The notes under the pieces are model-generated. The model searched no databases. It saw only the letters and a program-made list of their open reading frames with translations, and had not been told where the DNA came from. The translations under genes were made by a program, and so were the position numbers. Positions 1,715 through 59,548 of a stretch of DNA of 64,000 nucleotides are shown here, one piece after another (positions within the stretch are counted from its first letter, which is position 1; each line of letters begins with the position of its first letter). Origin of the DNA: Chitinophaga pinensis (GTDB lineage Bacteria; Bacteroidota; Bacteroidia; Chitinophagales; Chitinophagaceae). The DNA lies in contig CALSAD010000015.1 of assembly GCA_943372845.1 (NCBI GenBank), forward strand, positions 1,389 to 65,388, read 5' to 3'.

Positions 1715-1951
1715 GGATACTTCTTTTGGGTACCTCCGCATAAGATATTTACCGCATAGGCACGAGGGCTTAAGGTTCGCGAGGGGATGGGGCATAGCTG
1801 CTATCAACAGAACGCTTTGGCTTGAAATGCTGCCAGCGTACTTAATAAGTGCCCCCGTTTTGATTCTTAATAACCTTACTAAATGGATTGCGTATAGCCG
1901 GCAGATTTGTGTGGCTTTACGCAATTAGTGTTATTTGGGTTCCGTATATTT

Positions 1952-1967
1952 AAGTGCTAGCGGCAAT
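1952..1967. repeat. Cassette-start box (AAGTGCTAGCGGCAAT), inverted copy of the R1 left end
   Basis: Near-identical to 34367-34382 (AAGTGTTAGCGGCAAT). It is the reverse complement of the TGCCGCTAAC box that opens R1 copies at 3449 and 35233, and lies 57 nt upstream of the 2024 start. Confidence 0.6.
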
Positions 1968-2023
1968 ACATTGAAACAGTTACAAACTACTACTAATATT
2001 ATAACAGCAAACCAAACCTAAAA

Positions 2024-3424: not shown

Positions 3425-3448
3425 TAGATTGATTTCATATGATAGCAC

Positions 3449-3652
3449 ATGCCGCTAACATTGCATAGCAGCGATTGGCGCTGACGAATAACATTCTTCA
3501 ACTGCATCAAAATCCCAGCATAAGTTCCGACTGAAGAAATTCTGAGCGGTAATAGCATATATTATGATCTTTAGTAACTTCATTCAGCGACAATAAGCCA
3601 TGGACGACGGAAGAGCATTCCCCAACCGCTTTAATGCTTGGACGTTACGCCC
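3449..3652 (+). repeat. R1 structured repeat, copy a (attC-like ends)
   Basis: Starts ..TGCCGCTAACATTGCATAGCAGCGATTGG and ends CCAACCGCTTTAATGCTTGGACGTTACGC, so the ends are imperfect inverted repeats. About 80 percent similar by eye to 35233-35438; partial copies at 4953-5090 and 5922-6062. Confidence 0.85.
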
Positions 3653-3707
3653 AATAGCCTACGATACATAAAATTTCTTTGAAAAAAATATATAAACACT
3701 CTAACTA

Positions 3708-4128
3708 ATGGACACTACGCAAATATTTATAAGCTTAGGAAGTGCTGTAATTGGCGGTATTGTAGCGACTTATTTAAAAGCATTCTTAGAGAAAAAGAAG
3801 GAGATTGAAATTAGTTTACAAAAAATAACAGAGGATAAATACAAAGGCCTCTTAATTTTTATGGCTTGTGCAATCGACTTTGAAAAACGAAGATTTTTTT
3901 CCTTAAATGAACAAGTGGCGAACAAATCATCTGTAGACTATTTGAATCAAATAAAAAGAATATTATTATCATTCACTCTTATATTCACCTGATAATGTAA
4001 TTGTAGCTTTAAAGCATTTTGTAAATAACCCTGACAAGGGAAATTATGTTAAGGTCGCAAAAGAAATGCGAAAAGACCTTTGGAATAAGAATACGAAACT
4101 GGATTTTAGCGAAATTCTCTTAGATTGA
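3708..4128 (+). pseudogene. Small membrane-anchored hypothetical protein, frameshifted
   Basis: The ORF 3708-3992 stops, but the +1 frame continues with protein-like sequence (KEYYYHSLLYSPDNVIVALKHFVNNPDKGNYVKVAKEMRKDLWNK..) to a TGA at 4126-4128. The two frames join if one nt of the A5 run at 3953-3957 is skipped. Confidence 0.55.
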
Positions 4129-4282
4129 TATTCCTGAGTAGAACACCAGCTTTCAGCATTTGTGGCTGGAAAGAATAGCGGTTTCATTTACAACATGTTT
4201 TGTCCTGTAAGGCTGACATTTTGACGAAAGCTCCAACATCCAAAAAATTTGAAAGATTAACAATTCTTAGTAGATTTGAGAT

Positions 4283-4519
4283 ATGAAGACGTTAACGCTC
4301 CAAATACCTGATAGTTTAGATGCAAAAGAAGCGCAGACGCTTTTCGCAGCTAAATTATATGAAAAAGGTTCTTTATCGTTAGGGCAAGCTGCAGAACTTG
4401 CAGGGTACTCCAAACGCACTTTCATGGAACTTCTTGCAAACTATGAAGTTTCAGTTTTTAATTATTCAGAGGCAGAATTAAATAAAGAGATTCTCAATGC
4501 ACAAAGCTATCATCTCTGA
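4283..4519 (+). CDS. UPF0175-family antitoxin
   Basis: 78 aa. The motif LFAAKLYEKGSLSLGQAAELAGYSKRTFMELL is typical of UPF0175. Overlaps the downstream PIN-like gene by 23 nt. Confidence 0.75.
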   Translation: MKTLTLQIPDSLDAKEAQTLFAAKLYEKGSLSLGQAAELAGYSKRTFMELLANYEVSVFNYSEAELNKEILNAQSYHL

Positions 4520-4952
4520 CACCAGTTGTTTAATCTTGTTAGACAAAATCGGTGAGCTTGAAATGCTGCATAAATTATTTGGATCAATAATTACTACCAC
4601 TGAGATTGCAAGTGAATTCGGACAACCACTTCCTTCTTGGATTGAAGTAAAGCAGCCATCAGACAATACTTATCAATCAATTATTGAAGCGTCTGTGGAC
4701 AAAGGTGAAGCAAGTGCTATAGCCTTGGCAATAGAATTGGATGATTGCTTACTTATCATTGACGATCTGAAAGGAAGAAAATTTGCAAATCAAATCGGTC
4801 TTGCAATTATTGGAACCATTGGAGTAATTGTAGATGCAAAACTTGCAGGCATCATCCCTTCTGTCAAACCAATATTGACTAAAATTAAGTCAACAAATTT
4901 CAGAATTACAGATGAGTTGGAAGCAATAATTCTGAAAAGATCCGGCGAATAA
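4497..4952 (+). CDS. DUF3368 (PIN-like) toxin
   Basis: ISDTSCLILLDKIG..., GEASAIALAIELDDCLLIIDDLKGRKFA and GTIGVIVDAK match the DUF3368 PIN-like pattern. Translationally coupled to the UPF0175 gene. Confidence 0.75.
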   Translation: MHKAIISDTSCLILLDKIGELEMLHKLFGSIITTTEIASEFGQPLPSWIEVKQPSDNTYQSIIEASVDKGEASAIALAIELDDCLLIIDDLKGRKFANQIGLAIIGTIGVIVDAKLAGIIPSVKPILTKIKSTNFRITDELEAIILKRSGE

Positions 4953-5090
4953 GCATCGATCAATAGTGCATAGGGGTTATGGCTTCGTAAGCAAGGAAGG
5001 TACCTAATGATAACTGTTTTGTCTTGAAGTAGATAGCCATAGCGTCGGAAGATTTTTCCCCAACCGCTGCAATGCCTGAACGTTAGGTGC
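4953..5090 (+). repeat. R1 structured repeat, copy b (short form)
   Basis: The right half (GCCATAGCGTCGGAAGATTTTTCCCCAACCGCTGCAATGCCTGAACGTTAGGTGC) aligns with the other R1 right ends. It ends in GTTAGGT, an exact GTTRRRY, and begins immediately after the stop at 4952. Confidence 0.7.
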
Positions 5091-5165
5091 AAAGTGCTAA
5101 GAACGACACAACTGCCAACACACAAATAGAAAAGAAACATAATTATAAAACAACAAAAGGACAAA

Positions 5166-5804
5166 ATGAGAACTTTAAACAAAGAACTACAAAATTCGAT
5201 TACACCGGCAATGGCAATTGACATTCTCAAAGAAGGAAATAATCGGTTCGTAAATAACCTAAAAGTAAACCGAAACCTTTTGCAACAGGCAAATGAAACT
5301 TCAGACGGACAGCATCCTTTTGCGGTAATTCTTAGTTGCATTGACAGCAGAACTTCGGTAGAATTAATTTTTGACCAAGGACTTGGAGACGTATTTAGTA
5401 TTCGTATTGCAGGAAATATATTAAATGAAGATATTTTAGGTAGTATGGAATTCGGTTGTAAAGTAGCTGGTGCTAAAATCATAGTTGTATTAGGACATAC
5501 AAAATGCGGAGCGGTAAAAGGTGCTTGCGACCATGTTGAAATGGGAAATCTGACTAGCTTGCTCACTAAAATAAGACCTGCCGTTGATGACGAGCAAACT
5601 ACAAAGGAAAATCGCAACTCTGCCAATGGAGAATTTGTAGAAAAAGTGGCAACCATTAATGTAAAACGGACAGTTAAAGCAATAACAGAACGAAGCCCTA
5701 TTTTAAAAGAAATGATGGAAAGCGGTCAAATTGGTATTGTTGGTGGCTCCCACGACATCGCAACCGGCAAGGTGATTTTTTATCATGATACGATAACTCA
5801 ATAA
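5166..5804 (+). CDS. Beta-class carbonic anhydrase
   Basis: Zinc-ligand motifs SCIDSR and GHTKCGA. Confidence 0.9.
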   Translation: MRTLNKELQNSITPAMAIDILKEGNNRFVNNLKVNRNLLQQANETSDGQHPFAVILSCIDSRTSVELIFDQGLGDVFSIRIAGNILNEDILGSMEFGCKVAGAKIIVVLGHTKCGAVKGACDHVEMGNLTSLLTKIRPAVDDEQTTKENRNSANGEFVEKVATINVKRTVKAITERSPILKEMMESGQIGIVGGSHDIATGKVIFYHDTITQ

Positions 5805-5820
5805 CGATAATTTTTATTAT

Positions 5821-5910
5821 CCGCAAAGTGTTCCTTAACAGTTCTCCGCTTGTTCCCTCTGGGAGACATGCGAAGAACTGTTTTTTTATTGGCTTTAAGA
5901 ATACTTTGCA
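5821..5910. repeat. R2 element, short hairpin form (copy a)
   Basis: CCGCAAAGTGTTCCTTAACAGTTCTCCGC ... GCGAAGAACTG...TAAGAATACTTTGCAG. These are the two terminal arms of the R2 element folded on each other without the ~170-bp interior. Confidence 0.65.
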
Positions 5911-5921
5911 GAGAATATAAA

Positions 5922-6062
5922 ATTCCAACATTAGTTCCAGTTGAAGGAATTCTGATCGGCAGTAGCATATATCATCATCTTTAGTAACTTCATTCAGCAA
6001 CAGATAGACATATGCGACGGAAGATCATTCTATAATCGCTTCAATGCCCGGGTGTTGGCAGT
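5922..6062 (+). repeat. R1 structured repeat, copy c (right two-thirds)
   Basis: Aligns with R1a from ..CAGCATAAGTTCCGACTGAAGAAATTCTGAGCGG.. to the end. Ends GGGTGTTGGCAG. Confidence 0.75.
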
Positions 6063-6102
6063 CATACAAAATTTGACGTCCTAAATATTTTAATAATACA
6101 AA

Positions 6103-6972
6103 ATGCAATTACTTACATATTCTTTTCGATGGCTTACGATTCTGTTTTTATTTGTTGCTTTACAGGCGCAGGCGCAGAATGGGGCGGCTTATCAATATCC
6201 ACCAAGTGAGGTTGTAAAGATTCACTCAAGGGTTTTAAACGAAGATCGCAAGGTGTATGTTCATTGCCCTAAAGTAGACTCAGCGGATGTAAACAAACGA
6301 TTTCCCGTATTATACTTACTGGACGCTGACAATCATTTTGAACTTCTTGCTCAGTATGTCGATTATCTTAGTCGCCCAGATGTGTTAGCAATGCCTAAGA
6401 TAATAGTGGTCGGCATTTCAAATACAAAACGAACAAGAGACCTTACACCAACAAATAGCATACTTAACTATGACGGCAAGCCAGATAGCAGTTCGTATAA
6501 ACTCAGTGGCGGGAATGGATTTTTTTTACAGTTCATTGAGACAGAATTGATACCACTGATCGACAAAAATTACAAAACAGAGCCCTATAAAATTTTTGCA
6601 GGGCATTCCTTTGGTGGAATTGCATCTATTCATTGTATGTTAACCCATCCCGATATGTTTGATGCTTATATTGCTGTAAGCCCTTCGCTTTGGTGGGACA
6701 ATGAGCATCTTTTGAAAATGACCGGTGAAAAACTGAAAAGTGGTTCAGTATTTAAAAAAATGTTTTTTTACAGCGATGGAAATGAGGGTGGAAGTAATTC
6801 GTCTTTTCATAAAAGTTTATTGAAATTAGATTCAACAATAGCTACAAAAAAGCTAAAAGGGCTTCATTATCTATATAAACATTACCCAACCGAAACGCAT
6901 ATGACAGAACCAGTTGTGGCTTATTTTGATGCGCTGCGATTTGTTTTTATGGAATGGGCAATGCATCAGTAA
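6103..6972 (+). CDS. Secreted alpha/beta-hydrolase (putative esterase family)
   Basis: Signal peptide and nucleophile elbow GHSFGG. The layout resembles the esterase D / enterochelin-esterase-like family. Confidence 0.7.
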   Translation: MQLLTYSFRWLTILFLFVALQAQAQNGAAYQYPPSEVVKIHSRVLNEDRKVYVHCPKVDSADVNKRFPVLYLLDADNHFELLAQYVDYLSRPDVLAMPKIIVVGISNTKRTRDLTPTNSILNYDGKPDSSSYKLSGGNGFFLQFIETELIPLIDKNYKTEPYKIFAGHSFGGIASIHCMLTHPDMFDAYIAVSPSLWWDNEHLLKMTGEKLKSGSVFKKMFFYSDGNEGGSNSSFHKSLLKLDSTIATKKLKGLHYLYKHYPTETHMTEPVVAYFDALRFVFMEWAMHQ

Positions 6973-7042
6973 GAACAAAAGCCTGTGTGTAAATGCCTGT
7001 ATCAATAACATGGTATGTTATTATCCGAAAATTGTTTTTATC

Positions 7043-7339
7043 ATCCGCGAAGTATTACTTTGCCTTTCTCCGCATGCCTCCCGCCGCGGCGGAGATATTG
7101 CGGTTAGTACCACACAATAATATCGATATTGCAAATCTTCTTCATCGCACAAATGAAGTTAGGTCCATGTCCTGTAACCGATTTTTGAAGTAGTTTATGT
7201 AAACCATACCAAGTATACAACTACTGAGTGAGTGTAGCCGTAAATAGCTTCTTACTAACGTGGATGATACCTGCTTCTAACCGCAATGTCCCTGTTAGGA
7301 GACATGCGGAGAACTGTCTTTTTTTAAGTACCAACACAG
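7043..7339. mobile_element. R2 MITE-like element, full copy b
   Basis: About 300 bp with no credible ORF. Long terminal inverted repeats (ATCCGCGAAGTATT..CTCCGCATGCCTCCC..ATTGCGGTT versus AACCGCAATGTCCC..GGAGACATGCGGAGAAC..). Collinear with 36217-36523. Confidence 0.5.
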
Positions 7340-7436: not shown

Positions 7437-8828
7437 ATGGCAACTTCCAGAAGAAAATTTTTGCAAACACTGGGGTCTTCCAGTTCTTTGCTGTTAGCCG
7501 GCTTACCGGCCATGGCTGATCAGTCAAACATCCAACAATTATTATCCGCAGTTAAAGTAAGTGCCAATGATAGGGTGCGCATTGCTTTAATTGGTTCGGG
7601 CATCATTGGTCATTATGATACCGATACCGCACTCAAAGTGCCGGGCGTTGAATTGGGGGCTGTATGCGATCTGTATCAGGGCAGATTAGACAGGGCGCAG
7701 GAGAAATGGGGTAAAGAAATCTTTGTTACCCGCAACTACAAGGAAGTGTTAGCCCGGAAAGATATTGATGCCGTTCTGGTTTGCACCTGCGATCACTGGC
7801 ATGATCATATCACTATTGATGCACTCAAAGCCGGCAAACATGTGTATTGTGAAAAACCCATGGTACACCATGTAGAAGAAGGACTTGCCGTTGTGGCTGC
7901 ACAAAAAGTCAGTGGCAAAGTATTGCAGGTGGGCAGTCAATCAGCCAGTTCTGTTTTATTTCTCGAGGCACAAAAATATTTTAAGAAAGGTATTATTGGT
8001 GAGCTGGCTTATGCAGAAGCGTATAACGACAGAAGTTCGGCCAACGGCGCATGGCAATACACCATACCGAATGATGCCAGTACCAAAACCATTGATTGGG
8101 ATCGGTTTCTGGGCGATGCACCGAAAGTTCCTTTTGATCCCGTTCGTTTTTTCCGCTGGCGCAATTACAAAGCCTATGGTACAGGAGTAGCGGGCGATCT
8201 GTTTGTTCATAATTTTACCGGACTGCATACTGTAACCGGTTCCTATGGTCCGGATACCATTTATGCAGCAGGGGCCTTAAACTATTGGAAAGATGGCCGA
8301 GATGCTTATGATATTGTAAGCGGTGTTATGCGTTATCCCAAAACAGAACAGCATAATGGATTTCAATTTTTCACAAGAGTAAACTTAGCTGATGGGGCAG
8401 GTGGCGGCGCCAGCAATCGTTTTATTGGAACAGAAGGTGTGATAGAAGTAAAGTCAAACAGTATTAAAATAAAACATTTTAAACGACCCGTTGCCCCCAG
8501 TATTGGCGGATATGATTCGATGGAGAGTTTTACGAAAACCATGCAACAGTCTTTGCTGGCTGAATACAATGCAAAGTATAGTGCCGAAGACAGGAAAGCA
8601 AAAGATGGAGAGGAAATTATTTTTGAATCGCCCAAAGGTTATGATAGTCGCCTGGATCACATGATCAATTTCTTCGAAGCCATCCGCACCAATAAACCCA
8701 TACTGGAAGATGCCTCTTTTGGTTTACGTGCTGCCGGCCCCGCCATTCTCTGTAACAAGAGTGTAGAAAAGAATCGCGCCATTCATTGGGATGCCAAGAA
8801 TATGAAAGTGATTCCCGAAAAAGCATAA
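7437..8828 (+). CDS. Tat-exported Gfo/Idh/MocA-family oxidoreductase
   Basis: Twin-arginine signal SRRKFLQTLG, Rossmann motif IALIGSGIIG, and KAGKHVYCEKPM. Confidence 0.85.
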   Translation: MATSRRKFLQTLGSSSSLLLAGLPAMADQSNIQQLLSAVKVSANDRVRIALIGSGIIGHYDTDTALKVPGVELGAVCDLYQGRLDRAQEKWGKEIFVTRNYKEVLARKDIDAVLVCTCDHWHDHITIDALKAGKHVYCEKPMVHHVEEGLAVVAAQKVSGKVLQVGSQSASSVLFLEAQKYFKKGIIGELAYAEAYNDRSSANGAWQYTIPNDASTKTIDWDRFLGDAPKVPFDPVRFFRWRNYKAYGTGVAGDLFVHNFTGLHTVTGSYGPDTIYAAGALNYWKDGRDAYDIVSGVMRYPKTEQHNGFQFFTRVNLADGAGGGASNRFIGTEGVIEVKSNSIKIKHFKRPVAPSIGGYDSMESFTKTMQQSLLAEYNAKYSAEDRKAKDGEEIIFESPKGYDSRLDHMINFFEAIRTNKPILEDASFGLRAAGPAILCNKSVEKNRAIHWDAKNMKVIPEKA

Positions 8829-8837
8829 CTACAAATA

Positions 8838-8899
8838 ACCGTGCCTTCGTGCCTTGGTGTGCAAATTACTTTCTCACACCAAGGCACTAAGGCACGGTT
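8838..8899. repeat. REP-like palindromic element, family A (copy A2)
   Basis: AACCGTGCCTTCGTGCCTTGGTGTG - loop - CACACCAAGGCACTAAGGCACGGTT. Confidence 0.85.
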
Positions 8900-8943
8900 T
8901 AAGAATACACAACCGCTTACCTTACTCATACAATTGCTTATTC

Positions 8944-10347
8944 ATGTATGTATCCAAATGCAAATACCTTTTCTTCGCTTGTAGTTTGTTGGTATCCTTG
9001 GTATCTGCACAAAAAAATACCCAAATAGAAACCTGGCTAACCAATCCCTCAGCTAATGTGCTGTTTGTAAAGCAACCACTATCATTATCTTTTTCAAGTA
9101 AGATAAATAATCAGCAAGTAATCATTGTTGATGATAAACAAACTTTCCAAAGCATGGATGGTTTTGGGTTTTCGCTCACGGGTGGGAGTGCTGCTAATTT
9201 AATCAAGATGACTCCGCATGCGAGAGCTGCCATACTGAGAGAATTATTTGCTACTGATAAAAATAATATCGGTATCAATTATCTACGTATTAGTATTGGC
9301 GCTTCTGATTTAAATGAAAAAGTATTTTCGTATGATGATCTCCCTGCAGGAGAAACAGATCCCGATCTGAAAAAGTTTGATTTGGGTCCCGATAAAAAGG
9401 ATGTGATCCCTATTCTGAAAGAAATATTGAAGCTAAATCCATCTATCAAAATCATGGGCTCGCCCTGGTCGCCACCGGTTTGGATGAAGAACAATAAAGA
9501 TACACGTGGCGGAAATCTGTTACCTGAATATTATGGATCGTATGCAACCTATTTTATCAAATACATTCATGAGATGCGTAGGCAGGGCATTCGTATTGAT
9601 GCCGTAACCGTGCAGAATGAGCCCTTACATCCCGGTAACAATCCCAGTTTACAAATGCTGGCACCAGAGCAGGCATTGTTTGTGAGGGATTATTTAGGGC
9701 CTGCATTTAAAAAAGCGGGGATCACTACCAAAATCATCATTTACGATCATAATGCAGACAGACCCGATTATCCCATTCAGATTTTAAACGATACTGCTGC
9801 GAGAAAATTTATTGATGGATCTGCTTTTCATTTATACGGTGGAAAGATTGTAGCACTTGCTGATGTACACAAAGCACACCCAGATAAGAACCTTTATTTT
9901 ACAGAACAATGGATTGGCGCACCCGGAAATTTTGCCGGCGATATTCCCTGGCATGTTGAAAATCTAATCATTGGTGCCAGTCGCAATTGGTGTAAAACCG
10001 TATTGGAATGGAACCTTGCATCAGATGCCCAATACCAACCACATACTGACCGTGGGGGTTGCGACAAATGTTTGGGTGCCATCACGATTGATAAAGATAG
10101 GGTGACCAGAAATCCGGCGTATTACATCATTGCGCATGCAGCCAAATTTGTAAGAATCCGTTCTTTACGCATTCAATCTAACCTGTTAGAGGGTTTACCC
10201 AATGTGGCTTTCAAAACAGCTTCGGGTAAAAAGGTATTAATTGTATTGAATAGTAGCAAAGAAGGCAAAGCGTTTGCCATACAATACAAGGGCAGCAGTG
10301 CGGTAACTCAATTGCCCGCAGGTGCCGTAGCTACTTATGTTTGGTAA
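8944..10347 (+). CDS. Glycoside hydrolase family 30-like (O-glycosyl hydrolase)
   Basis: Signal peptide after Met at 8944. Has AVTVQNEP (acid/base) and LYFTEQW (nucleophile) motifs. The longer 8854 start runs through repeat A2, so the later ATG is preferred. Confidence 0.8.
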   Translation: MYVSKCKYLFFACSLLVSLVSAQKNTQIETWLTNPSANVLFVKQPLSLSFSSKINNQQVIIVDDKQTFQSMDGFGFSLTGGSAANLIKMTPHARAAILRELFATDKNNIGINYLRISIGASDLNEKVFSYDDLPAGETDPDLKKFDLGPDKKDVIPILKEILKLNPSIKIMGSPWSPPVWMKNNKDTRGGNLLPEYYGSYATYFIKYIHEMRRQGIRIDAVTVQNEPLHPGNNPSLQMLAPEQALFVRDYLGPAFKKAGITTKIIIYDHNADRPDYPIQILNDTAARKFIDGSAFHLYGGKIVALADVHKAHPDKNLYFTEQWIGAPGNFAGDIPWHVENLIIGASRNWCKTVLEWNLASDAQYQPHTDRGGCDKCLGAITIDKDRVTRNPAYYIIAHAAKFVRIRSLRIQSNLLEGLPNVAFKTASGKKVLIVLNSSKEGKAFAIQYKGSSAVTQLPAGAVATYVW

Positions 10348-11518: not shown

Positions 11519-11615
11519 CTCCGCGTAAACTCTGAAAACTCTGCGGCTCTGCGGTTGGAGCAAGTTCAATCAACCGCGGAGCCGCAGAGAACAGAGAGTT
11601 TTTCGCAGAGAAAAA
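11519..11615. repeat. Palindromic intergenic element, family C (copy C2)
   Basis: CTCCGCGTAAACTCTGAAAACTCTGCGGCTCTGCGGTTG ... CAACCGCGGAGCCGCAGAGAACAGAGAGTTTTTCGCAGAG. Confidence 0.8.
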
Positions 11616-31697: not shown

Positions 31698-31754
31698 AAC
31701 TGCGCCTTTGCGCCTTGACGTGAATATTTCTCGCAAAGGCGCAAAGGCGCAGTT
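31698..31754. repeat. REP-like palindromic element, family A variant
   Basis: AACTGCGCCTTTGCGCCTTG - loop - CAAAGGCGCAAAGGCGCAGTT. It has the same doubled GCCTT architecture as family A, with GCGCC replacing GTGCC. Confidence 0.7.
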
Positions 31755-33123: not shown

Positions 33124-34140
33124 TTAACGGCCAAGATATGTTTGAAAAAAAAGGTTGATGTCTTCTTTTGATGGTGGTTGTAACGGACGAACAATTCGAA
33201 AACCCACTCCTCTGGCATCCGTAAGCCACCATTTGCTTCTGGGAATCTGCGGATCTCTTCTGTTCCAGATGGGGTCTGAAGGAATACGGTTGGCAGCTCT
33301 TAGTTCACCGGCCCATTCTGTAAAGCTTCCGCCCCGCAATACTTTTGGATATTTGAGCATACTTACTTCAGCAAAGGGATCTATAGTGTTACTTAATTTT
33401 TCATAACGCGAAGCACCGTAATGATCCAGTGTCCATTCCATTACATTGCCCAGCATATCGTATAAGCCCCAGGCATTGGGTAATTTTTGTCCTACTTTCT
33501 GAAACTTGTCTTCACTGTTTTTTAAATACCATGCATATTTGTCCAATTGGGTACTATCGTCTCCAAAATAATAAGCAGTATTGGTTCCTGCCCGGCAGGC
33601 ATATTCCCATTCAGCTTCTGTAGGCAGGCGGTAGAAGATGCCGGTTTTTTCGTACAACCAACGGCAATACATTAATGCCGCAAACTGCGAAAGACTGTTA
33701 ACCGGGTAACCACCTGCTTTGCCCATGCCCCAGCTCAGGTCAACATATTGCGGACTGGGTCTGGTAATGGCATCCACATCCGAATTCTCACTGGTGTTTT
33801 CATCTTTATAAAAAACATCAAACTCATCCCTTGTCACTTCAAAAGCGCCCATCCAGAAAGGGGAGAGTTTTATTTTTTGTTGCGGACCTTCATCGGCATC
33901 CCGTTTTTTTTCTGCAGCGTTACTCCCAATCGTAAATTCTCCGCTTTTAATGGGAGCCATGGTAAAACGAAGGGTACTACCGGGAAGGGTTTGTTGGTAA
34001 CTGATAAATTCGGTCTTAGTCACCTGTGCCTTGCCCATGGTAAGCAACAATGCAAAAAACAACCCGAAAACAACTCTTTTCACGTAGTAAAATTTGGTGG
34101 TGAAAAGATAGTGAAATAAGTGATTTGAAAATAGTTTCAA
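33124..34140 (-). CDS. Formylglycine-generating-enzyme (SUMF1/EgtB/PvdO) family protein
   Basis: RLPTEAEWEYACRAGT, GNVMEWTLD and VLRGGSF motifs with a signal/anchor N-terminus. Confidence 0.85.
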   Translation of the reverse strand: MKLFSNHLFHYLFTTKFYYVKRVVFGLFFALLLTMGKAQVTKTEFISYQQTLPGSTLRFTMAPIKSGEFTIGSNAAEKKRDADEGPQQKIKLSPFWMGAFEVTRDEFDVFYKDENTSENSDVDAITRPSPQYVDLSWGMGKAGGYPVNSLSQFAALMYCRWLYEKTGIFYRLPTEAEWEYACRAGTNTAYYFGDDSTQLDKYAWYLKNSEDKFQKVGQKLPNAWGLYDMLGNVMEWTLDHYGASRYEKLSNTIDPFAEVSMLKYPKVLRGGSFTEWAGELRAANRIPSDPIWNRRDPQIPRSKWWLTDARGVGFRIVRPLQPPSKEDINLFFQTYLGR

Positions 34141-34366
34141 TTAGGTTGAATTTAGAAGGATTTTTATAGGAGAAGTGGCTGGTTTAGTAGAGAGAAAGTC
34201 ATGTGGTAGACATTATTTGCTTTTTGGGTAGATAGGTTTGCCATTTTTGTGGATGGTATTTACCCACTCTTTACCATTTACCTAATTAACAAAATTTATT
34301 TTTATTGAGGATCAATGAATTAATTATTGGGGAAGTATTGAAAAATATAGAAACCTGTGTACTTTC

Positions 34367-34382
34367 AAGTGTTAGCGGCAAT
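34367..34382. repeat. Cassette-start box (AAGTGTTAGCGGCAAT)
   Basis: GTGTTAGCGGCA (34369-34380) is the exact reverse complement of TGCCGCTAACAC (35235-35246) on the other side of the 34397-35230 gene. A similar box lies at 1952-1967. Confidence 0.65.
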
Positions 34383-34396
34383 GGTAAAATAACAGT

Positions 34397-35230
34397 ATGA
34401 ACTTCAAAGAGATTTTACAGGACAAACCAAATGGTGCCTATACTGATGTGGAAGATGTTATAATAAACACTTCACATCGCTATAGTAATGACGAGAAAGT
34501 ACTTATCGCATCACCTGATCTTGAATTATTCTGTAATGAGTGTAATGGCGTTCGAAATTTTGTTAGGGAATTATATCCTTATACTATTGGTGACCCGGAT
34601 ATCGAAATTGACTATCCTTATGCATACCTCTTAGACTATTTATGTTCGAACTGTAAGCTTGAATTGAAATACTTTGCACTACAAATAAGTCAAATTGAAA
34701 ATAGCACAAGTGCAAACGTCTATAAATTTGGTGAACTGCCAAATCGAATAAATAATTTGCCTGCCGCCCTAATTACGCTATTTGGTTCAGACAAAGACCT
34801 ATTAATAAAAGGAAAAAATTGCGAAACTCAAGGCTTAGGAATTGGAGCGATGGTTTATTATAGGCGAATTGTTGAAAATAAAAGGAGAAACTTATTTGAC
34901 CTAATTATAAAAGCGCTTAAAAAAATTGGAGGACACGAACAAGAGATACTAAAAATAGAAGCAGCAAAGAATGAACCACAGTTTACAAAATCATTTGAGC
35001 AAGTAAAGAAGATTCTTCCACAAGAACTATTTATTGACGGACATAATCCGTTGACCTTATTACATTCAGCAGTAAGTAAAGGCGTTCATAATTTATCCGA
35101 TGAAGAATGCTTAGAAATTGCGACAAGCATTCGTGTTGTGCTGACAGAATTAGTGAACAGGATCGCTGTGATTTCATCAAATGAAAAATCATTGAAGTCA
35201 GCATTGGCAAACCTTAATAAATTGAAATAA
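34397..35230 (+). CDS. Hypothetical zinc-ribbon protein (possible DUF4145-like helical C-terminus)
   Basis: Two CxxC pairs (CNECNG, CSNCK). The C-terminal helices with YYRRIVE and LLHSAVSKGVHNLSDEE resemble DUF4145. The assignment is from memory only. Confidence 0.55.
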   Translation: MNFKEILQDKPNGAYTDVEDVIINTSHRYSNDEKVLIASPDLELFCNECNGVRNFVRELYPYTIGDPDIEIDYPYAYLLDYLCSNCKLELKYFALQISQIENSTSANVYKFGELPNRINNLPAALITLFGSDKDLLIKGKNCETQGLGIGAMVYYRRIVENKRRNLFDLIIKALKKIGGHEQEILKIEAAKNEPQFTKSFEQVKKILPQELFIDGHNPLTLLHSAVSKGVHNLSDEECLEIATSIRVVLTELVNRIAVISSNEKSLKSALANLNKLK

Positions 35231-35232
35231 CT

Positions 35233-35438
35233 ACTGCCGCTAACACTGCATTGCAGCAATTGGGGCTCACGAATAACGTTCTTCAACTGCATCAAAAATC
35301 CCAGCATCTGTTCCGGCTGAAGGAATTCTGAGCGGCAGTAGAATATATCATGATCTTTTGTAACTTAGTTCAGCGACAGTAAGCCATGGGCGACGGAATA
35401 GCATTCCCCAACCGCTTCAATGCTTGGACGTTGGCGGT
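35233..35438 (+). repeat. R1 structured repeat, copy d (full length)
   Basis: TGCCGCTAACACTGCATTGCAGCAATTGGGG ... CCCCAACCGCTTCAATGCTTGGACGTTGGCGG. The terminal inverted repeats match 15/18 in the GCATTG..TTGGGG block. Begins 3 nt after the stop at 35230. Confidence 0.85.
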
Positions 35439-35465
35439 AAGCCTAAATCAAACAGTTCGCTTTTT

Positions 35466-36020
35466 ATGAAACACATAATATATTTACACCTATTTCTATT
35501 TATTCAATCAGCTTGCTATGCACAGAGTAAAAATGGACCCGCAGAAGTAACAAAAGAGATTGAAAAAAAAATTAATCAAGAAATTACTAAAGAATCAGGG
35601 TTATTAAAATCGCGTCTGACAGATTCGAAAGAAGCCACAGATGTAATTGAATTTACTTTGGATACTTTTAGAATAGAAAAATATCGGGAAAGATTTATTG
35701 ACTACGATTGGTCGACAGCGGGTATGAGATCAGCAACATATGATGCAGCAGATAAATATGACAGATTATTAAACAAATACTACAAAAAACTTTTATTAAT
35801 TCTTAAACAAGTCGATAAGTCGGTTCTTATAAACGTCCAAAAATCTTGGATTAGTTTCAGAGACAATGAACTGAAGCTTATCGGAACTATTAGTAAAGAT
35901 GAGTATTCAGGCGGTGGGACAATACAAGGGATACTAAATGCATCAGATTATTTAGAAATTATTAAGCAACGAACATTTACAATTTATCAGCACTACCTGA
36001 GAGCGGCACAAATATATTGA
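35466..36020 (+). CDS. DUF1311 (LprI-like) domain protein, secreted
   Basis: Signal peptide MKHIIYLHLFLFIQSACYAQ, then LLNKYYKKLL..QKSWISFRDNE...GGGTIQG. The 35424 start lies inside repeat R1d, so it was rejected. Confidence 0.7.
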   Translation: MKHIIYLHLFLFIQSACYAQSKNGPAEVTKEIEKKINQEITKESGLLKSRLTDSKEATDVIEFTLDTFRIEKYRERFIDYDWSTAGMRSATYDAADKYDRLLNKYYKKLLLILKQVDKSVLINVQKSWISFRDNELKLIGTISKDEYSGGGTIQGILNASDYLEIIKQRTFTIYQHYLRAAQIY

Positions 36021-36030
36021 TAGAAAAGGC

Positions 36031-36166
36031 AGTACGACTGAGTGGTTGTACTCATAAATAGTTCATTACTAACCTACATAATGCCAGCTCCGATCCGCAA
36101 CGTCCCCTTGCGGGAGACATGCGGGGAACTTTCTGTTTTAGGTGGGCTTAAGAATACTTTGCACAG
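36031..36166. mobile_element. R2 element, truncated copy c (right part only)
   Basis: Aligns with 36381-36523 of the full copy, including the right terminal arm AACGTCCCCTTGCGGGAGACATGCGGGGAAC..AAGAATACTTTGCACAG. Confidence 0.55.
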
Positions 36167-36190
36167 AATAAAATAAATGCATAATTCAGG

Positions 36191-36210
36191 GGCCACAGAT
36201 TCGCAGATTA
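36191..36210. repeat. Family B half element (B2)
   Basis: GGCCACAGATTCGCAGATTA is the left arm only. Confidence 0.6.
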
Positions 36211-36216
36211 TTTATT

Positions 36217-36523
36217 ATCCGCAAAGTATTCCTTTGTCTTTCTCCGCATGTCTCCCGATAGGGGACATTGCGGTTTGTAGCACATAGCAACATCAATATG
36301 GTCAATCTTCTTCATCGCACAAATAAAATTAGGCCAATGTGCTTAACCGTTTTTTGAAGTAGCGTATGTAAACCCTGCAAAGTATACAACAACTAAGTGG
36401 TTGTGTACCCGTTAAGAATTGAATACTAACCTGGATAATGCCTGCTCCTAACCGCAATGTCCCCTTGCGGGAGACATGCGGAGAACTTTCTGTTTTAGGT
36501 GGGCTTAAGAATACTTTGCACAG
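36217..36523. mobile_element. R2 MITE-like element, full copy d
   Basis: Left arm ATCCGCAAAGTATTCCTTTGTCTTTCTCCGCATGTCTCCCGATAGGGGACATTGCGGTT. Right arm AACCGCAATGTCCCCTTGCGGGAGACATGCGGAGAAC..AAGAATACTTTGCACAG. The interior is collinear with 7043-7339. Confidence 0.55.
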
Positions 36524-36548
36524 AATAAAATAAATGCATAATTCCGGG

Positions 36549-36594
36549 GCCGCAGATTCGCAGATTATTAGCTGAAAATCTGCGAATCTGCGGC
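36549..36594. repeat. REP-like hairpin, family B (copy B3)
   Basis: GCCGCAGATTCGCAGATT - loop - AATCTGCGAATCTGCGGC. Confidence 0.85.
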
Positions 36595-36699
36595 AAAATT
36601 CCTCACCACCCTCCAATATGTTTAAAACTGATACACTGCTTACAAACTTTGCAATTCTTTAATCACAATAAATTCAGTAAATTTGATTAAAAGGAACTC

Positions 36700-36933
36700 A
36701 TGGTAGGACACATTATTAACATCGACCCGGAAATTTTAGGAGGAACTCCTGTTTTCAGTGGCACCCGTGTTCCTATTAAGAATCTTTTTGACTATCTCGA
36801 ATCCGGAGAATCCATTGATTATTTCCTTGATGACTTCGAATCTGTTCAGCGTGAGCAAGTAATCAAGCTTCTTGAAATGTCTCAACGTCTTATTGAAACT
36901 TCATCAAATATTCTGCATGAAAATATTGCTTGA
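36700..36933 (+). CDS. DUF433-family antitoxin-like protein
   Basis: DPEILGGTPVFSGTRVPIKNLFDYLESGESIDYFLDDF matches the DUF433 signature. Confidence 0.8.
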   Translation: MVGHIINIDPEILGGTPVFSGTRVPIKNLFDYLESGESIDYFLDDFESVQREQVIKLLEMSQRLIETSSNILHENIA

Positions 36934-37241
36934 TGAATGTGTAACAAAACATCTTAAGCCTCATTTAATGAGTCATGAGGTTTCAACAGTTAGAGAATTA
37001 GGATGGAGTGGAGTTAAAAACGGTAAACTGATGACGCTGTGCGTTTAAAATGGTTTTGATATTCTTTTAACCATTGACAAAAAATTTACAACATCAACAA
37101 AATCTGGATAAATACCCAATCACAATTGTTATATTAAATAGCTACACCAGCAAAGTGGAAGAATTAATTGAATTCTTACCACAATTCGAAGCTCAACTTT
37201 CTACTTATCAAAAACACCGGGCTTATCAAATACATCGATAA
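36917..37241 (+). pseudogene. DUF5615 (Mut7-C/PIN-like) toxin partner, disrupted
   Basis: MKILLDECVTKHLKPHLMSHEVSTVRELGWSGVKNGKLMTLCV, then an in-frame TAA at 37046-37048. NGFDILLTIDK continues, then a shifted frame reads NLQHQQNLDKYPITIVILNSYTSKVEELIEFLPQFEAQLSTYQKHRAYQIHR. The shift fits an extra A in the A6 run at 37079-37084. Confidence 0.75.
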
Positions 37242-37265: not shown

Positions 37266-38318
37266 TCACTTCCAATACCTCCCAAACCCCGGCGTATCAT
37301 AATACACCACCCGGTTGTTTCTTATTTCTGTAATCAGTAATTCCGCTCCCATTTTTTTTACCAGTTGTTTGGCTTCGATAATTGATGCAATACTACAGGC
37401 CGTTGCCAGCCAGTCGGCAGTTGCTCCGTCTTTGGCAATCACGGTTACATTTCGTTGCGAGGAAATCCCATATCCTGTACGCGGATCAATGATATGTGAA
37501 TATTTGCGGCCATTGTGTTCGATAAATTGATAAGCATCGCCCGAAGTGGCAACGGCCATATTATGTAATAGCAATTTAGTGGTTAAAAGCTCATCGGTTG
37601 TTTCGGGAACATTCACACCCACTATCCATCCCTTGGTTCCCGGCGGTGATCCGCTCATGGCCATATCGCCACCGGCATCAGCCAATGCGCTGTGAACTCC
37701 TTTGGTAGCTAAATAATCAATCACAGCCTGTGCTACATACCCTTTGGCAATACCTCCCAGATCCAACTGCATACTTTGTTTGTTGAATCGGATACGATGT
37801 TGAAGGGTATCTATTGTCAAAAGACCAAAACCAACGCGTTTCTTTTGCATCAAAACCTCACTGCTATCAGGGAAACGGTTTTCCCTGCGCATCCTTCTCC
37901 ACAAACGACTCAACGGCGAAACGGTGATATCAAAAGCCCCTTTGCTTTGCTGCCAGGCTTTTTTTGATTGAACAAGGATATCCCATAAGGCGGGTGATGC
38001 TGTTTGATACCGATTGTCTGCCTGCGCGCATAAGCGGCTCAATTCACTGGTACTATCGTAATCGCTGAAAATATGGTTAAAAGAATCGATTAGCATGAAA
38101 CATTCCTTCGCCAGTTGTACTGCCTGAAATGAATCGGTATGCACCAGTATGAGATTAAAAGGGGAACCCATTTTGTTTTCCACAAAATGAAATTTCCTTT
38201 GTTGGGCATAACAGCTACTAACTGTTAGTAAACTGAGTAAAATAAAAGCAAGGTATCTGCGCAAGCGGGTTGTTTTATGGGTGTATCTCTGTAAATTTAA
38301 GCAAGAAAAAACAGCCAT
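37266..38318 (-). CDS. apbE: FAD:protein FMN transferase (ApbE family)
   Basis: GGIAKGY and ATSGDAYQF motifs with a lipoprotein-like signal (LLTVSSC). Met at 38318 is chosen because the 38345 start would overlap the divergent gene. Confidence 0.8.
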   Translation of the reverse strand: MAVFSCLNLQRYTHKTTRLRRYLAFILLSLLTVSSCYAQQRKFHFVENKMGSPFNLILVHTDSFQAVQLAKECFMLIDSFNHIFSDYDSTSELSRLCAQADNRYQTASPALWDILVQSKKAWQQSKGAFDITVSPLSRLWRRMRRENRFPDSSEVLMQKKRVGFGLLTIDTLQHRIRFNKQSMQLDLGGIAKGYVAQAVIDYLATKGVHSALADAGGDMAMSGSPPGTKGWIVGVNVPETTDELLTTKLLLHNMAVATSGDAYQFIEHNGRKYSHIIDPRTGYGISSQRNVTVIAKDGATADWLATACSIASIIEAKQLVKKMGAELLITEIRNNRVVYYDTPGFGRYWK

Positions 38319-39242
38319 ATGCAAAGAAGAAAATTTATGCAGCAAAGTTTGCTGGCAGGCGGATCACTGATGGCCGCTACTGCCGCTTTTGGAAAAGAAA
38401 AAAAAGCGGAACTACTCGATAATAACCAACCCTTTCATTTGCCCTATGCCATTCATGATGGCATGTTTAAGAATCATGGCGGGGCAGATTTTGTTGACCA
38501 GATCAATTTTGCGCACACTGTTGGGTTTCGCGCCATAGAAGACAATGGCATGATGAGCCGTACACCCGAACAACAAAAAAGAATTGGCGATACCCTTGAA
38601 AAACTGGGATGGGGTATGGGTGTGTTTGTAGTGGAATTTGATAAATGGCCCTTATCTACCAATATGGCCGGCGGCAAAAAAGAATGGCGCGATAAATTTG
38701 TGCAGTATTGTAAAGATGCGGCAGAGGTGGCCAAACGTTGTCATGCCAAATGGGTAACCGTGGTGCCCGGTAATTACGACAGAACCCTTTCTATGGGTTT
38801 TCAAACAGCTAATGTGATTGATATTTTACGAAGGGGTGCCGAAATTCTGGAACCGCATGGATTGATCATGGTATTAGAACCTTTGAGCGATACACCGGAA
38901 CTTTTTCTGCGTTACACAGATCAAACCTATTCCATCTGCAAAGCGGTGAACAGCCCCTCCTGTAAAATTTTATACGATATGTACCACATACAACGCAATG
39001 AGGGTAATATTCTTCCAAATATGAACCGGGCCTGGGATGAGATTGCGTATTTGCAAATAGGCGATAACCCGGGAAGAAAAGAACCGGGTACGGGCGAAAT
39101 GAATTACAAAAATATTTTCAAACACGTTCATGATAAAGGATACAAAGGCATTTTAGGCATGGAGCATGGTAATGCAAAGCCCGGTAAAGACGGAGAGCTG
39201 GCATTGATCAATGCCTATCGTGAAGCGGATAGTTTTATGTGA
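38319..39242 (+). CDS. Tat-exported xylose-isomerase-like TIM-barrel protein (hydroxypyruvate-isomerase-like)
   Basis: Twin-arginine signal QRRKFMQQ, then LEPLS, YHIQRNEGN, IAYLQIGDNPGRKEPGTGEMNY and GILGMEHG. Confidence 0.8.
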   Translation: MQRRKFMQQSLLAGGSLMAATAAFGKEKKAELLDNNQPFHLPYAIHDGMFKNHGGADFVDQINFAHTVGFRAIEDNGMMSRTPEQQKRIGDTLEKLGWGMGVFVVEFDKWPLSTNMAGGKKEWRDKFVQYCKDAAEVAKRCHAKWVTVVPGNYDRTLSMGFQTANVIDILRRGAEILEPHGLIMVLEPLSDTPELFLRYTDQTYSICKAVNSPSCKILYDMYHIQRNEGNILPNMNRAWDEIAYLQIGDNPGRKEPGTGEMNYKNIFKHVHDKGYKGILGMEHGNAKPGKDGELALINAYREADSFM

Positions 39243-39281
39243 TGATGTCAAATGTGTTGTGCGGTTTACTTTTTCATTCCA

Positions 39282-39342
39282 AACCGTGCTTTCGTGCCTT
39301 TGCGTGCTATTTTTTTTCACACCAAGGCACAAAGGCACGGTT
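39282..39342. repeat. REP-like palindromic element, family A (copy A3)
   Basis: AACCGTGCTTTCGTGCCTTTGCGTG - T-rich loop - CACACCAAGGCACAAAGGCACGGTT. Confidence 0.85.
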
Positions 39343-39350
39343 ATAATACT

Positions 39351-40352: not shown

Positions 40353-40374
40353 GAGAAGGGGATTCATTGTGTTC

Positions 40375-40418
40375 TTTCTCTGCGAAACCTCTCTGATCTC
40401 TGCGGCTCTGCGGTGAAA
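40375..40418. repeat. Family C half element (C3)
   Basis: TTCTCTGCGAAACCTCTCTGATCTCTGCGGCTCTGCGGTGAAAA is the left arm only. Confidence 0.7.
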
Positions 40419-40522
40419 AGGGTTGTATTCATTTCGGATGGGTAAGCTGTTCGTGATGCACAGATTAAAAGTTTCTAAAAAATATTATTTACTTACACAC
40501 TTCTGATAATAACACATTTCGT

Positions 40523-42487: not shown

Positions 42488-42553
42488 TACCGAAGCTATA
42501 TCATCAGCAGTGTATCAGTTTGAGATGTATGGGAGAGTGGTGAGGATTTTTTT

Positions 42554-42620
42554 GCCGCAGACCTGCCTGCCGGCGAGGCAAGTTCGCAGATTATTAACCT
42601 GAAATCTGCGAATCTGCGGC
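42554..42620. repeat. REP-like hairpin, family B (copy B4) with internal insertion
   Basis: GCCGCAGA-[CCTGCCTGCCGGCGAGGCAAG]-TTCGCAGATT - loop - AATCTGCGAATCTGCGGC. The left arm is interrupted by a 21-nt GC-rich mini-hairpin. Confidence 0.75.
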
Positions 42621-42747
42621 AAAGAATGCTGAATGCATATCTACAGATACAGTACCCTATCATAAGTGATTTGTTTGAACAGTACAGGTCATGACGGTTG
42701 CCAATAGGTAATCATTAGTTTTCGTTACTGTTCATCTTATGCTATAA

Positions 42748-46730: not shown

Positions 46731-46827
46731 TTTTTTTCACCGCGGAGGCGCAGAGAGCGCTGAGTTTTCGCAGAGAAATTCTTCTCTGCGTTTTCTCACC
46801 GTCCTCCCCGCCTCTGCGGTGAAAAAA
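46731..46827. repeat. Palindromic intergenic element, family C (copy C4, arms in swapped order)
   Basis: TTTCACCGCGGAGGCGCAGAGAGCGCTGAGTTTTCGCAGAGAA ... TTCTCTGCGTTTTCTCACCGTCCTCCCCGCCTCTGCGGTGAAA. Confidence 0.8.
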
Positions 46828-59398: not shown

Positions 59399-59410
59399 GG
59401 AGAGAATACA

Positions 59411-59433
59411 CCGTGCCTTAGTGCCTTTGTGTG
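59411..59433. repeat. Family A half element (A4)
   Basis: CCGTGCCTTAGTGCCTTTGTGTG with no right arm. Confidence 0.6.
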
Positions 59434-59548
59434 AATCAAAGTCTGGCAGTTAAATTTAAGCATAGTAATTATGCCAAGGTCTTCTCGTTCACTTGAACGG
59501 TATATTTTGTGATTGGATTATTATTTAAAGAGAGCCCCATTACCTAAT

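Follow-up and report, generated by a model that had tools for sequence, protein, structure and literature searches.

A putative integron-type cassette array without a recombinase gene of its own between an FGE-like gene and apbE in a Chitinophagaceae chromosome

Introduction

Integrons, clusters of attC sites lacking an integrase (CALINs), and the insertion of cassettes at secondary sites and at attG sites are well described (PMC4889954; bioRxiv 10.1101/2022.09.11.507474). In sedentary chromosomal integrons, as in CALINs and in single sites lacking an integrase (SALINs), compact cassettes are carried on one strand; they are mostly of unknown function and include toxin-antitoxin (TA) pairs. Each cassette ends in an imperfectly palindromic site framed by AAC and GTT. 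The crossover takes place at G|TT (the bar marks the point of exchange), which makes the 3′ box of a site part of the cassette that follows. Sites are homogeneous within an array, whereas between arrays structure is conserved and not sequence. The bottom strand folds better, an attI-type site lies beside a tyrosine recombinase gene, and clusters without integrase are found elsewhere in the chromosome. All these traits have counterparts, putative in the case of the attI-type site, in the subject of the present study, a 3.1-kb islet (islet B) located in the interval between an FGE-sulfatase-like gene and apbE on a 64,000-nucleotide stretch of a Chitinophaga pinensis contig (CALSAD010000015.1; this whole stretch is called the window), and in related loci of other genomes.

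Departures from integrons are also apparent. The sites measure about 180-200 nt, against 57-141 nt with a variable centre in typical attC sites, and their interior is conserved in sequence within the family. The recombinase found at the head of arrays lacks the insertion specific to IntI, has an N-terminal extension of about 110 residues and is co-oriented with the cassettes. Finally, the host family, Chitinophagaceae (Bacteroidota), is one in which integrons are all but undetected by standard tools; for Bacteroidetes proper, the only complete integron listed by IntegronFinder 2.0 is that of Salinibacter (PMC9024848). In full-text searches of the literature, nothing was found that links attC-type sites or cassette arrays to Chitinophagaceae, or that describes integron-type arrays headed by a recombinase devoid of the IntI domain, and this absence is not proof of novelty. 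The logic of integrons is known; what would be new here is the different recombinase lineage, the longer sites and the several landing pads per genome.

Considering the data presented below, islet B is probably an integron-type cassette array, built by integron-like site-specific capture of cassettes; the identity of the enzyme is less certain. In the proposed mechanism, a short array having no recombinase gene of its own would have been inserted into the FGE-apbE intergenic region. The repeat called R1 would play the role of attC, its two ends pairing into an imperfect hairpin bracketed by AAC and GTT. A tyrosine recombinase would cut at G|TT, so that each cassette would start with bases complementary to the box opening its own R1. 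Circular cassettes would enter one by one, the point of entry being a short attI-like core, GTATATTTAAGTG|TT. The cognate enzyme would most likely be an XerA/IntI-like tyrosine recombinase of about 400 residues; for the present window, it would either work in trans, being encoded at another place in the genome, or have been lost. Decay would then have left cassette 1 alone with an intact site, palindromes of the R2 and B families now occupying the place where the site of cassette 2 was.

The R1 repeats

The intact R1 copy of islet B, R1d, is composed of a variable box followed by AAC (35242-35244), a 5′ stem arm, an interior of about 150 nt, a 3′ stem arm, GGAC and a final GTT (35430-35432). 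Its first conserved box, TGCCGCTAAC, starts 4 nt after the end of the stop codon, which is near the 3 nt given in an earlier note made from the letters of this DNA. R1d is 89-90% identical to R1a, the only other intact R1 of the window, which lies in a second islet (islet A). Identities between repeat copies, 80-90% over 140-200 nt, are far beyond chance.

A degenerate 30-nt motif taken from the 3′ end of R1 was used as a probe in one-genome-per-species data and in metagenomes. It retrieved 26 loci from the former, about 19 of which carry a full-length R1 of about 200 nt and belong to Sediminibacterium, Limnovirga and other Chitinophagaceae; the remaining ones are chance matches in unrelated phyla. 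A further 18 loci came from metagenomes. Among PLSDB plasmids, neither R1 nor a close homologue of the array-head recombinase was found. With an nhmmer profile of R1, same-strand arrays with a spacing of 0.6-1.9 kb were observed, containing eight sites in L004, six in L017 (a complete Sediminibacterium chromosome), six in L008 and four in L018. These R1 arrays of other genomes carry different genes. Neither of the two observations that the earlier note had named as speaking against it, the same genes without the repeats in relatives or repeats without gene variability, was encountered.

The conserved block of R1 always opens with a variable box of 7-9 nt, the last three bases of which are AAC, and closes with GGACGTT, after which the bases are again variable. 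Each of the two triplets, AAC and GTT, occurs in 27-28 out of 28 sites. In these 28 diverse sites, RNAalifold found one long-range helix joining both ends of R1, with 10 of 13 pairs compensated. A model of 21 pairs was then considered, comprising AAC/GTT, a stem of 18 bp and, between the two, an asymmetric internal loop with sides of 4 and 7 nt. In this model, 87.4% of the cells are paired, compared with 71% in shuffled controls and 30-44% when the partner is slid, and 75 cells show double changes versus 21 in shuffles. The 18-bp stem contains 11 compensated pairs; the position at alignment columns 25-191 is unpaired in 28/28 sites. When the two arms were folded as mini-hairpins, the bottom strand was the more stable one in 23/28 sites (-17.1 vs -15.2 kcal/mol, p = 4e-5), which would suit the use of a folded single bottom strand as substrate. 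A single hairpin involving the entire R1 of about 200 nt was considered and rejected, since bottom-strand folds of the whole repeat did not surpass those of shuffles.

Hallmarks of attC sites are the R″/R′ boxes, an unpaired central spacer, an L″/L′ stem with non-paired bases and a bottom-strand bias. By analogy, the features of R1, an imperfect inverted repeat framed by AAC/GTT in which structure is conserved over sequence, would correspond to these hallmarks; the interior of about 150 nt and the total length of about 198 nt differ. Sites of locus L049 have another sequence and the same architecture, over about 180 nt. A short R1 form of 75 nt, devoid of the interior, exists in L004. The interior itself (window 35260-35400; columns 32-184 of alignment A4) is conserved in sequence across genera and contains neither a covarying helix nor an open reading frame (ORF). 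Its role might be that of an internal promoter or of a platform for protein binding.

Cassette junctions and cassette mobility

Further evidence comes from the junctions. Each junction was scored by comparing the 7 nt that follow the GTT of one site with the reverse complement of the 7 nt that precede the AAC of the next site. Over 22 non-redundant adjacent pairs, the mean is 5.36 matches out of 7 and 13 junctions reach at least 6/7, a level attained by 8.4% of random pairs; the mean within the same site is 3.8. Failures are mostly seen at unusually long gaps or at an insertion sequence (IS), where an intermediate site was probably missed. In L017, the five junctions are all complementary. In L049, whose sites are of a different sequence family, three out of three fit, including the junction between the core and the first site. 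Both islets of the window score 7/7. Islet B starts with GTG|TTAGCGGCA, the start of cassette 1, AGCGGCA, and the R1d box, TGCCGCT, being exact reverse complements. Similarly, islet A opens with GTG|CTAGCGGCA and the start of R1a reads TGCCGCTAAC, with 7/7 after the triplet. This complementarity is the signature of integron cassettes, as expected from recombination at G|TT, whereby the 3′ box of a site is part of the downstream cassette and, when this is circular, pairs with that cassette's own site.

Comparison with relatives shows the FGE-apbE interval in its empty state, which the earlier note had proposed to look for. In L028 and L029, which keep the gene order AP_endonuc_2-ApbE-FGE-GFO_IDH_MocA, only 213 and 286 nt, respectively, separate apbE from the FGE gene. 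In another relative, L027, the same spot (2050-3261) is occupied by a gene for a Y1 transposase resembling the tyrosine transposases associated with repetitive extragenic palindromes (RAYT associated with REP; NF047646, 75.6 bits, cut-off 80), with inverted REPs on either side. The spot is therefore a hotspot for different kinds of mobile DNA across lineages.

Cassettes were also found to recur with exact boundaries. L008 has the tetratricopeptide repeat (TPR) cassette of islet A, with an R1 site on either side of it. The point at which the two DNAs become homologous is exactly G|YTAGC; ahead of this point, an R1 3′ end is found in L008 and unrelated DNA in the window. Cassette 1 of islet B, encoding a 277-residue protein, has a copy with 93% protein identity in L054 (6990-7860), where the backbone is a different one and the neighbours are genes for an AraC-type regulator and a glycosidase. 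The homology spans from G|TTAGCGGCA to a ...GCTAACAYT box, and then stops. No R1 follows this copy; a 10-nt mini-palindrome (ATTGGTCAAT) and then GTT stand in place, which may represent a collapsed site. In L055, a homologue with 53% identity to the 277-residue protein is followed by a short attC-like palindrome of about 60 nt (7855-7950), made of TATAAC, ACCCTAC, a loop, GTAGGGT and GTTGAT. This suggests that the 277-residue protein gene family may also travel as a conventional integron cassette. In L052 (Paraflavitalea; 8402-9623), the first cassettes encode an ArsR-type helix-turn-helix protein and a MerT/HMA mercury-transport protein, indicating that such arrays can carry recognisable adaptive functions.

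The attI-like core

Insertion is proposed to occur at a short motif of consensus sGTATATTTrAGTG|yTAGC, also written GTATATTTAAGTGTT. In L043, L048, L049 and L052, this core lies directly 3′ of the recombinase gene and before the first cassette, and is preceded by one to three CAATAnAAAnTGTATAA repeats. Without a recombinase nearby, it heads arrays located in ordinary intergenic DNA in L033 and in L041/L042; it also heads both islets of the window. No convincing homology was detected past about 15-20 nt around the core. As in attG or secondary-site insertion, chromosomal cassettes are thus found far from an integrase gene and beside core genes (bioRxiv 10.1101/2022.09.11.507474). Unlike in that process, the landing sites share a specific core of 13-15 nt, identical to the one beside the recombinase gene; hence, they look like solo attI-type sites, and not like loose sites containing GTT.

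The core differs from the 3′ end of R1 by transitions only (ATATTTAAGTG|TT vs ATGCTTGGACG|TT). The consensus of the -7 promoter element in Bacteroidetes is TAnnTTTG. Because the core overlaps this consensus and resembles the end of R1, it may be a recombination site, a promoter, or both.

A recombinase at the head of arrays

A family of tyrosine recombinases, typified by the protein of L043 (L043rec), heads arrays in five independent loci (L043, L037, L048, L049/L050, and L052). In L043, a backbone peptidase gene, a REP, the gene for the 397-residue recombinase, a 190-nt spacer ending in GGCGTATATTTGAGTG|TTAGCTGCAATAC, a cassette, R1, a second cassette, R1, and so on follow each other on one strand. 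The L037/L009 array is headed by a homologue with 51% identity, an IS91 element being inserted between the two. Four further members were identified. In L048, L049/L050 and L052, the order is housekeeping genes, recombinase, core and same-strand array; in L051, the contig ends just past the recombinase gene.

Members of the family have about 400 residues and are named 'tyrosine-type recombinase/integrase' by NCBI. In NCBIfam, L043rec scores highest against XerA/integron integrase, with 198.8 bits for a cut-off of 220, and against the integron integrase model TIGR02249, with 181 bits for a cut-off of 265; NF011946 gives 123 bits for a cut-off of 435. The closest solved structures are those of XerA (5hxy), of an XerC-like protein (4a8e) and of VchIntIA (2a3v, matched over two separate stretches). 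An alignment with an approximate sequence of IntI1 shows a gap of about 38 residues at the position of the IntI-specific insertion. The family therefore resembles XerA/IntI-type recombinases; it differs from them in remaining below every curated cut-off and in its extra N-terminal region, and from XerA-type enzymes in being found at the head of cassette arrays instead of in a dif-like housekeeping position. A canonical IntI, as defined by the IntI extra domain or by a pass with TIGR02249 or intI_Cterm, is not found in the window.

Pairs made of an IS91-family transposase and an XerD-like recombinase were observed inside R1 arrays (L009 2312-4261; L037 367-2316 and 5434-7502; L044 1945-3803). 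They occur on two independent contigs, each within about 230 nt of an R1 site, and may target R1 sites. The recombinase of L009/L044 was envisaged as the cassette integrase and rejected, being the partner of the IS91-family transposase inserted in the array.

Composition and decay of islet B

Features of islet B and of its sister islet are collected in Table 1. The window, of about 42% GC, belongs to a chromosome of the Chitinophagaceae type; the closest homologues of ApbE, with at most 66% identity, are from Sediminibacterium, Ferruginibacter and other Chitinophagaceae. The GC content of islet B is 33.5-39%, versus 42-45% in its flanks. Coordinates and identities bear out the description, given in the earlier note, of three plus-strand units and stacked repeats between the FGE-like gene and apbE, and the Pfam scores, the stop codon and the frameshift agree with its assignment of a DUF1311 protein and of a DUF433/DUF5615 pair with a dead toxin.

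Table 1. Coordinates of the features of islet B, its flanks and islet A in the window.
Feature	Position	Strand	Remarks
FGE-sulfatase-like gene	33124-34140	minus	flank of islet B
attI-like core of islet B, GTGTACTTTCAAGTG|TT	34358..34373	+	putative crossover G34371 / T34372, left boundary of the islet
Cassette 1	34372..35430	+	TTAGCGGCA..., 277-aa CxxC protein gene, attC-like site
277-aa protein gene	34397-35230	+	two CxxC pairs, no Pfam match
R1d, intact attC-like site	35235..35432	+	198 nt; among the two top-scoring nhmmer matches, 258 bits
Cassette 2	35431..36020	+	TTGGCGGTAAGCC..., LprI/DUF1311 gene; own attC-like site missing
LprI/DUF1311 gene	35466-36020	+	Pfam, E = 6.5e-13
R2 / B / R2 stack	36047..36569		nested palindromes around a REP-like hairpin, both orientations
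Copy of a different REP-like family	36544..36640		also in ordinary intergenic DNA, 110-156 and 42506-42623
DUF433 antitoxin gene	36700-36933	+	intact; Pfam, E = 8.5e-17
DUF5615 (PIN-like) toxin pseudogene	36923-37241	+	in-frame TAA and frameshift
ApbE gene	37266-38345	minus	other flank of islet B
Islet A	1957-7339	+	
attI-like core of islet A, GTATATTTAAGTG|CT	1944..1958	+	motif; TPR cassette homology to L008 starts exactly there
R1a, intact attC-like site of islet A	3450..3646	+	
R1b, truncated R1 copy in islet A	5026-5092		keeps 67 nt
R1c, truncated R1 copy in islet A	5919-6064		keeps 146 nt

The 277-residue protein gave no match in NCBIfam, and PADLOC found none among the islet B proteins. 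Its distant homologues, with 40-53% identity, are scattered across Proteobacteria, Nitrospinota and Chloroflexota. Cassette 2 has a typical cassette start immediately past the G|TT of R1d. On its 3′ side, no R1 match was detected by nhmmer and no complement of GGCGGTAAG was seen by eye; inspection of the sequence of the R2/B region likewise did not reveal the complementary box expected for the attC of cassette 2 or of the esterase cassette of islet A.

The DUF433 protein has 77% identity to its homologue in L022 (Limnovirga soli). This genome also encodes an intact 122-residue DUF5615 homologue, which confirms that the toxin gene of the window, where a Glu codon at 37046-37048 is replaced by TAA, is dead. 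Homology with Limnovirga is confined to the coding region and therefore does not mark the boundaries of the TA unit. As no recognisable site bounds the pair, the proposal of the earlier note that it is a third cassette is left unproven.

Islet B mirrors islet A, as the earlier note had suggested: all units are on the plus strand and both islets have R1, R2 and B repeats. The islet A counts are one intact and two truncated R1 sites, and its esterase cassette has none. Both islets look like ageing arrays. Loss of the cassette 2 site and death of the DUF5615 toxin indicate that islet B is decaying. Cassette 1 (34372-35430), which still has the core on one side and an intact site on the other, might in principle remain excisable.

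R2 and family B palindromes

The stack that follows cassette 2 is centred on the hairpin CCGCAATGTCCCC-TTGC-GGGAGACATGCGG, with inverted arms of 43 nt (36240-36282 and 36443-36485) that are 91% complementary. Its two R2 copies (36047-36212 and 36404-36569) share 90% identity and a partial copy occurs at 7232-7324; family B, at 36211-36404, is 80-89% identical to 7037-7235. Folded as single-stranded DNA, the region 36030-36640 (611 nt) reaches -109.5 kcal/mol (z = -9.25). In the window, R2 is restricted to the islets: it is found at the right-hand end of each and also stands in place of the 5′ part of R1c. One R2-like copy is found between two genes of the L009 array.

R2 and family B share with REPs, and with the doublets of REPs called REPINs, their short, GC-rich, imperfect and extragenic hairpins, present in many copies and in inverted doublets. 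They differ from REP/REPIN systems with a RAYT in that, within the window, no RAYT is seen and R2 is confined to the two islets. When all loci were searched by BLAST with the R2 cores and with the REP and RAYT of L027, only weak R2-like matches in L009 and no RAYT came up; the L027 REP could not be aligned to R2 by this means. Because they have no AAC/GTT frame and no complementarity to the preceding cassette starts, and because their design resembles that of the REPs flanking the L027 RAYT-like gene, R2 and family B are probably REP/REPIN-like palindromes and not recombination sites. They may travel within cassettes or prefer such DNA. The idea, put forward in the earlier note, that one repeat system placed accessory genes at two sites is thus supported for R1 and not for R2 and family B, which show no junction logic and occur in both orientations.

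Weighing the possible explanations

Several observations weigh against islet B being an integron-type array. No R1 is found after cassette 2 or after the TA pair. R1d being its one intact R1, islet B is a single-site element that would not even qualify as a CALIN, which IntegronFinder defines as two or more attC sites lying within 4 kb with no IntI in the vicinity. Its core is the most diverged copy of the motif and, as such cores could be promoters, might not be a recombination site. No recombinase or integrase-like gene occurs in the 64-kb window or within 5.5 kb past its right end, the latter region containing ordinary genes, and the link between recombinase and arrays is one of gene adjacency in five independent loci. 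Single-strand folds of the whole R1 are no better than those of shuffles (z = -0.9 and -0.2), which limits the structural support to the covariation of the terminal stem. The interior of R1 is conserved in sequence.

Considering these points, other possibilities may be envisaged. Islet B might be an ordinary integron remnant, either a CALIN or a single attC. R1 would then be a long attC, its enzyme a canonical IntI with the extra domain, encoded at another place in the genome, and the XerA-like recombinase a bystander. The attC logic of R1 and the lack of a recombinase in the window would fit; CALINs, and insertion by integrases at places other than att sites, have been documented (PMC4889954; bioRxiv 10.1101/2022.09.11.507474). 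However, this explanation appears unlikely, since a gene of the L043rec type, in the same orientation and with the core beside it, is found at all five independent array heads seen, an IntI-type match is found in none of the 55 loci, L043rec has no IntI insertion and stays below both integron-integrase cut-offs, and Bacteroidetes proper have one complete integron according to IntegronFinder 2.0 (PMC9024848). It may also be imagined that R1 is a non-autonomous transposable element, of the miniature inverted-repeat (MITE) or REP type, landing 3′ of genes. A repeat of about 200 nt with pairing ends and many copies per genome would agree with such an element, and other REP families are abundant in the window. 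Yet the orientation of sites is strictly uniform within arrays, neighbouring sites have variable boxes complementary to each other on the two sides of a gene, the homology of cassettes stops precisely at G|TT and no R1 copy occurs in the ordinary intergenic DNA of the window, so that a transposable element is very improbable.

Still slightly less credit can be given to R1 as a structured RNA element, such as a 3′ untranslated region, a terminator or a small RNA, common to accessory genes. The location of R1 on the coding strand just past stop codons and the covariation of its terminal stem are what such an element would show. Nevertheless, complementarity between the 3′ flank of one site and the 5′ box of the next, as well as the recombinase and the core at array heads, would remain unexplained by an RNA function; in addition, the bottom strand folds better than the strand of transcript sense, and Rfam gave nothing credible, either in a scan of the whole window at gathering thresholds or in an E-value scan of the islet, weak miRNA-model matches falling on a REP hairpin only. 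An alternative that concerns R2 only would be that R2 and family B form a second class of recombination sites, or a terminal site of the array. The confinement of R2 to the islets of the window, its place at their right ends and in R1c, the copy in L009 and the single-base bulges of the hairpin, which recall attC sites, speak for it. Set against these are the missing AAC/GTT frame and complementarity, the presence of R2 in both orientations, its absence from all other arrays examined and an architecture as in the L027 REPs, which together make a recombination-site role for R2 rather improbable.

If the interpretation of islet B as an integron-type array is extended to the family as a whole, Chitinophagaceae would possess an unrecognised class of integrons, combining an XerA/IntI-like recombinase that has no IntI domain, has an N-terminal extension and is co-oriented with its cassettes, folded attC-like sites of about 180-200 nt, and several solo attI pads without recombinase, sharing the 13-15-nt core and fed in trans. 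Both islets of the window would be such pads. This extended proposal could as easily prove wrong as right. Tools for integron detection rely on the IntI-specific domain and on an attC model of up to about 200 nt; by these criteria, Bacteroidota appear almost free of integrons. Should the proposal be true, a different recombinase lineage would run the cassette logic in a family that is common in soil and freshwater; integron-type gene capture would be broader than surveys show and, beyond IntI, would have evolved or diversified. The extra domain of IntI is regarded as indispensable for binding extrahelical attC bases, and a system devoid of it would offer a direct handle on the recognition of folded sites. 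Several landing pads per genome with one core would represent a new mode of array organisation. As to annotation, such islets account for low-GC gene clusters of Chitinophagaceae that are specific to a strain, TA pairs included.

Additional observations in the window

No tRNA gene was found in a search of the window, and the protein at its left edge has no database record. In islet A, the segment 3708-4128 contains a small ORF (3708-3992), the frame of which appears to be continued past a frameshift; it is probably a decayed cassette gene. The islet A cassette 3647-5084 may correspond to two cassettes fused through site loss. Islet A also has a UPF0175/DUF3368 pair (4283-4952) matching the PADLOC candidate defence system PDC-S70 (PIN-like partner, E = 3.5e-38).

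Three families of REP-like palindromes distinct from R2 and B were noted, only one of which is represented in islet B. The GTGCCTTnGTGCCTT type is found in ordinary intergenic DNA at 3-65, 8835-8901, 31698-31754, 39281-39344, and 59407-59434, and the CTCTGCGG type, in the same kind of DNA, at 1188-1280, 11519-11602, 40372-40419, and 46732-46827. The CCGCAGATTCGCAGATT type is the one listed for islet B in Table 1.

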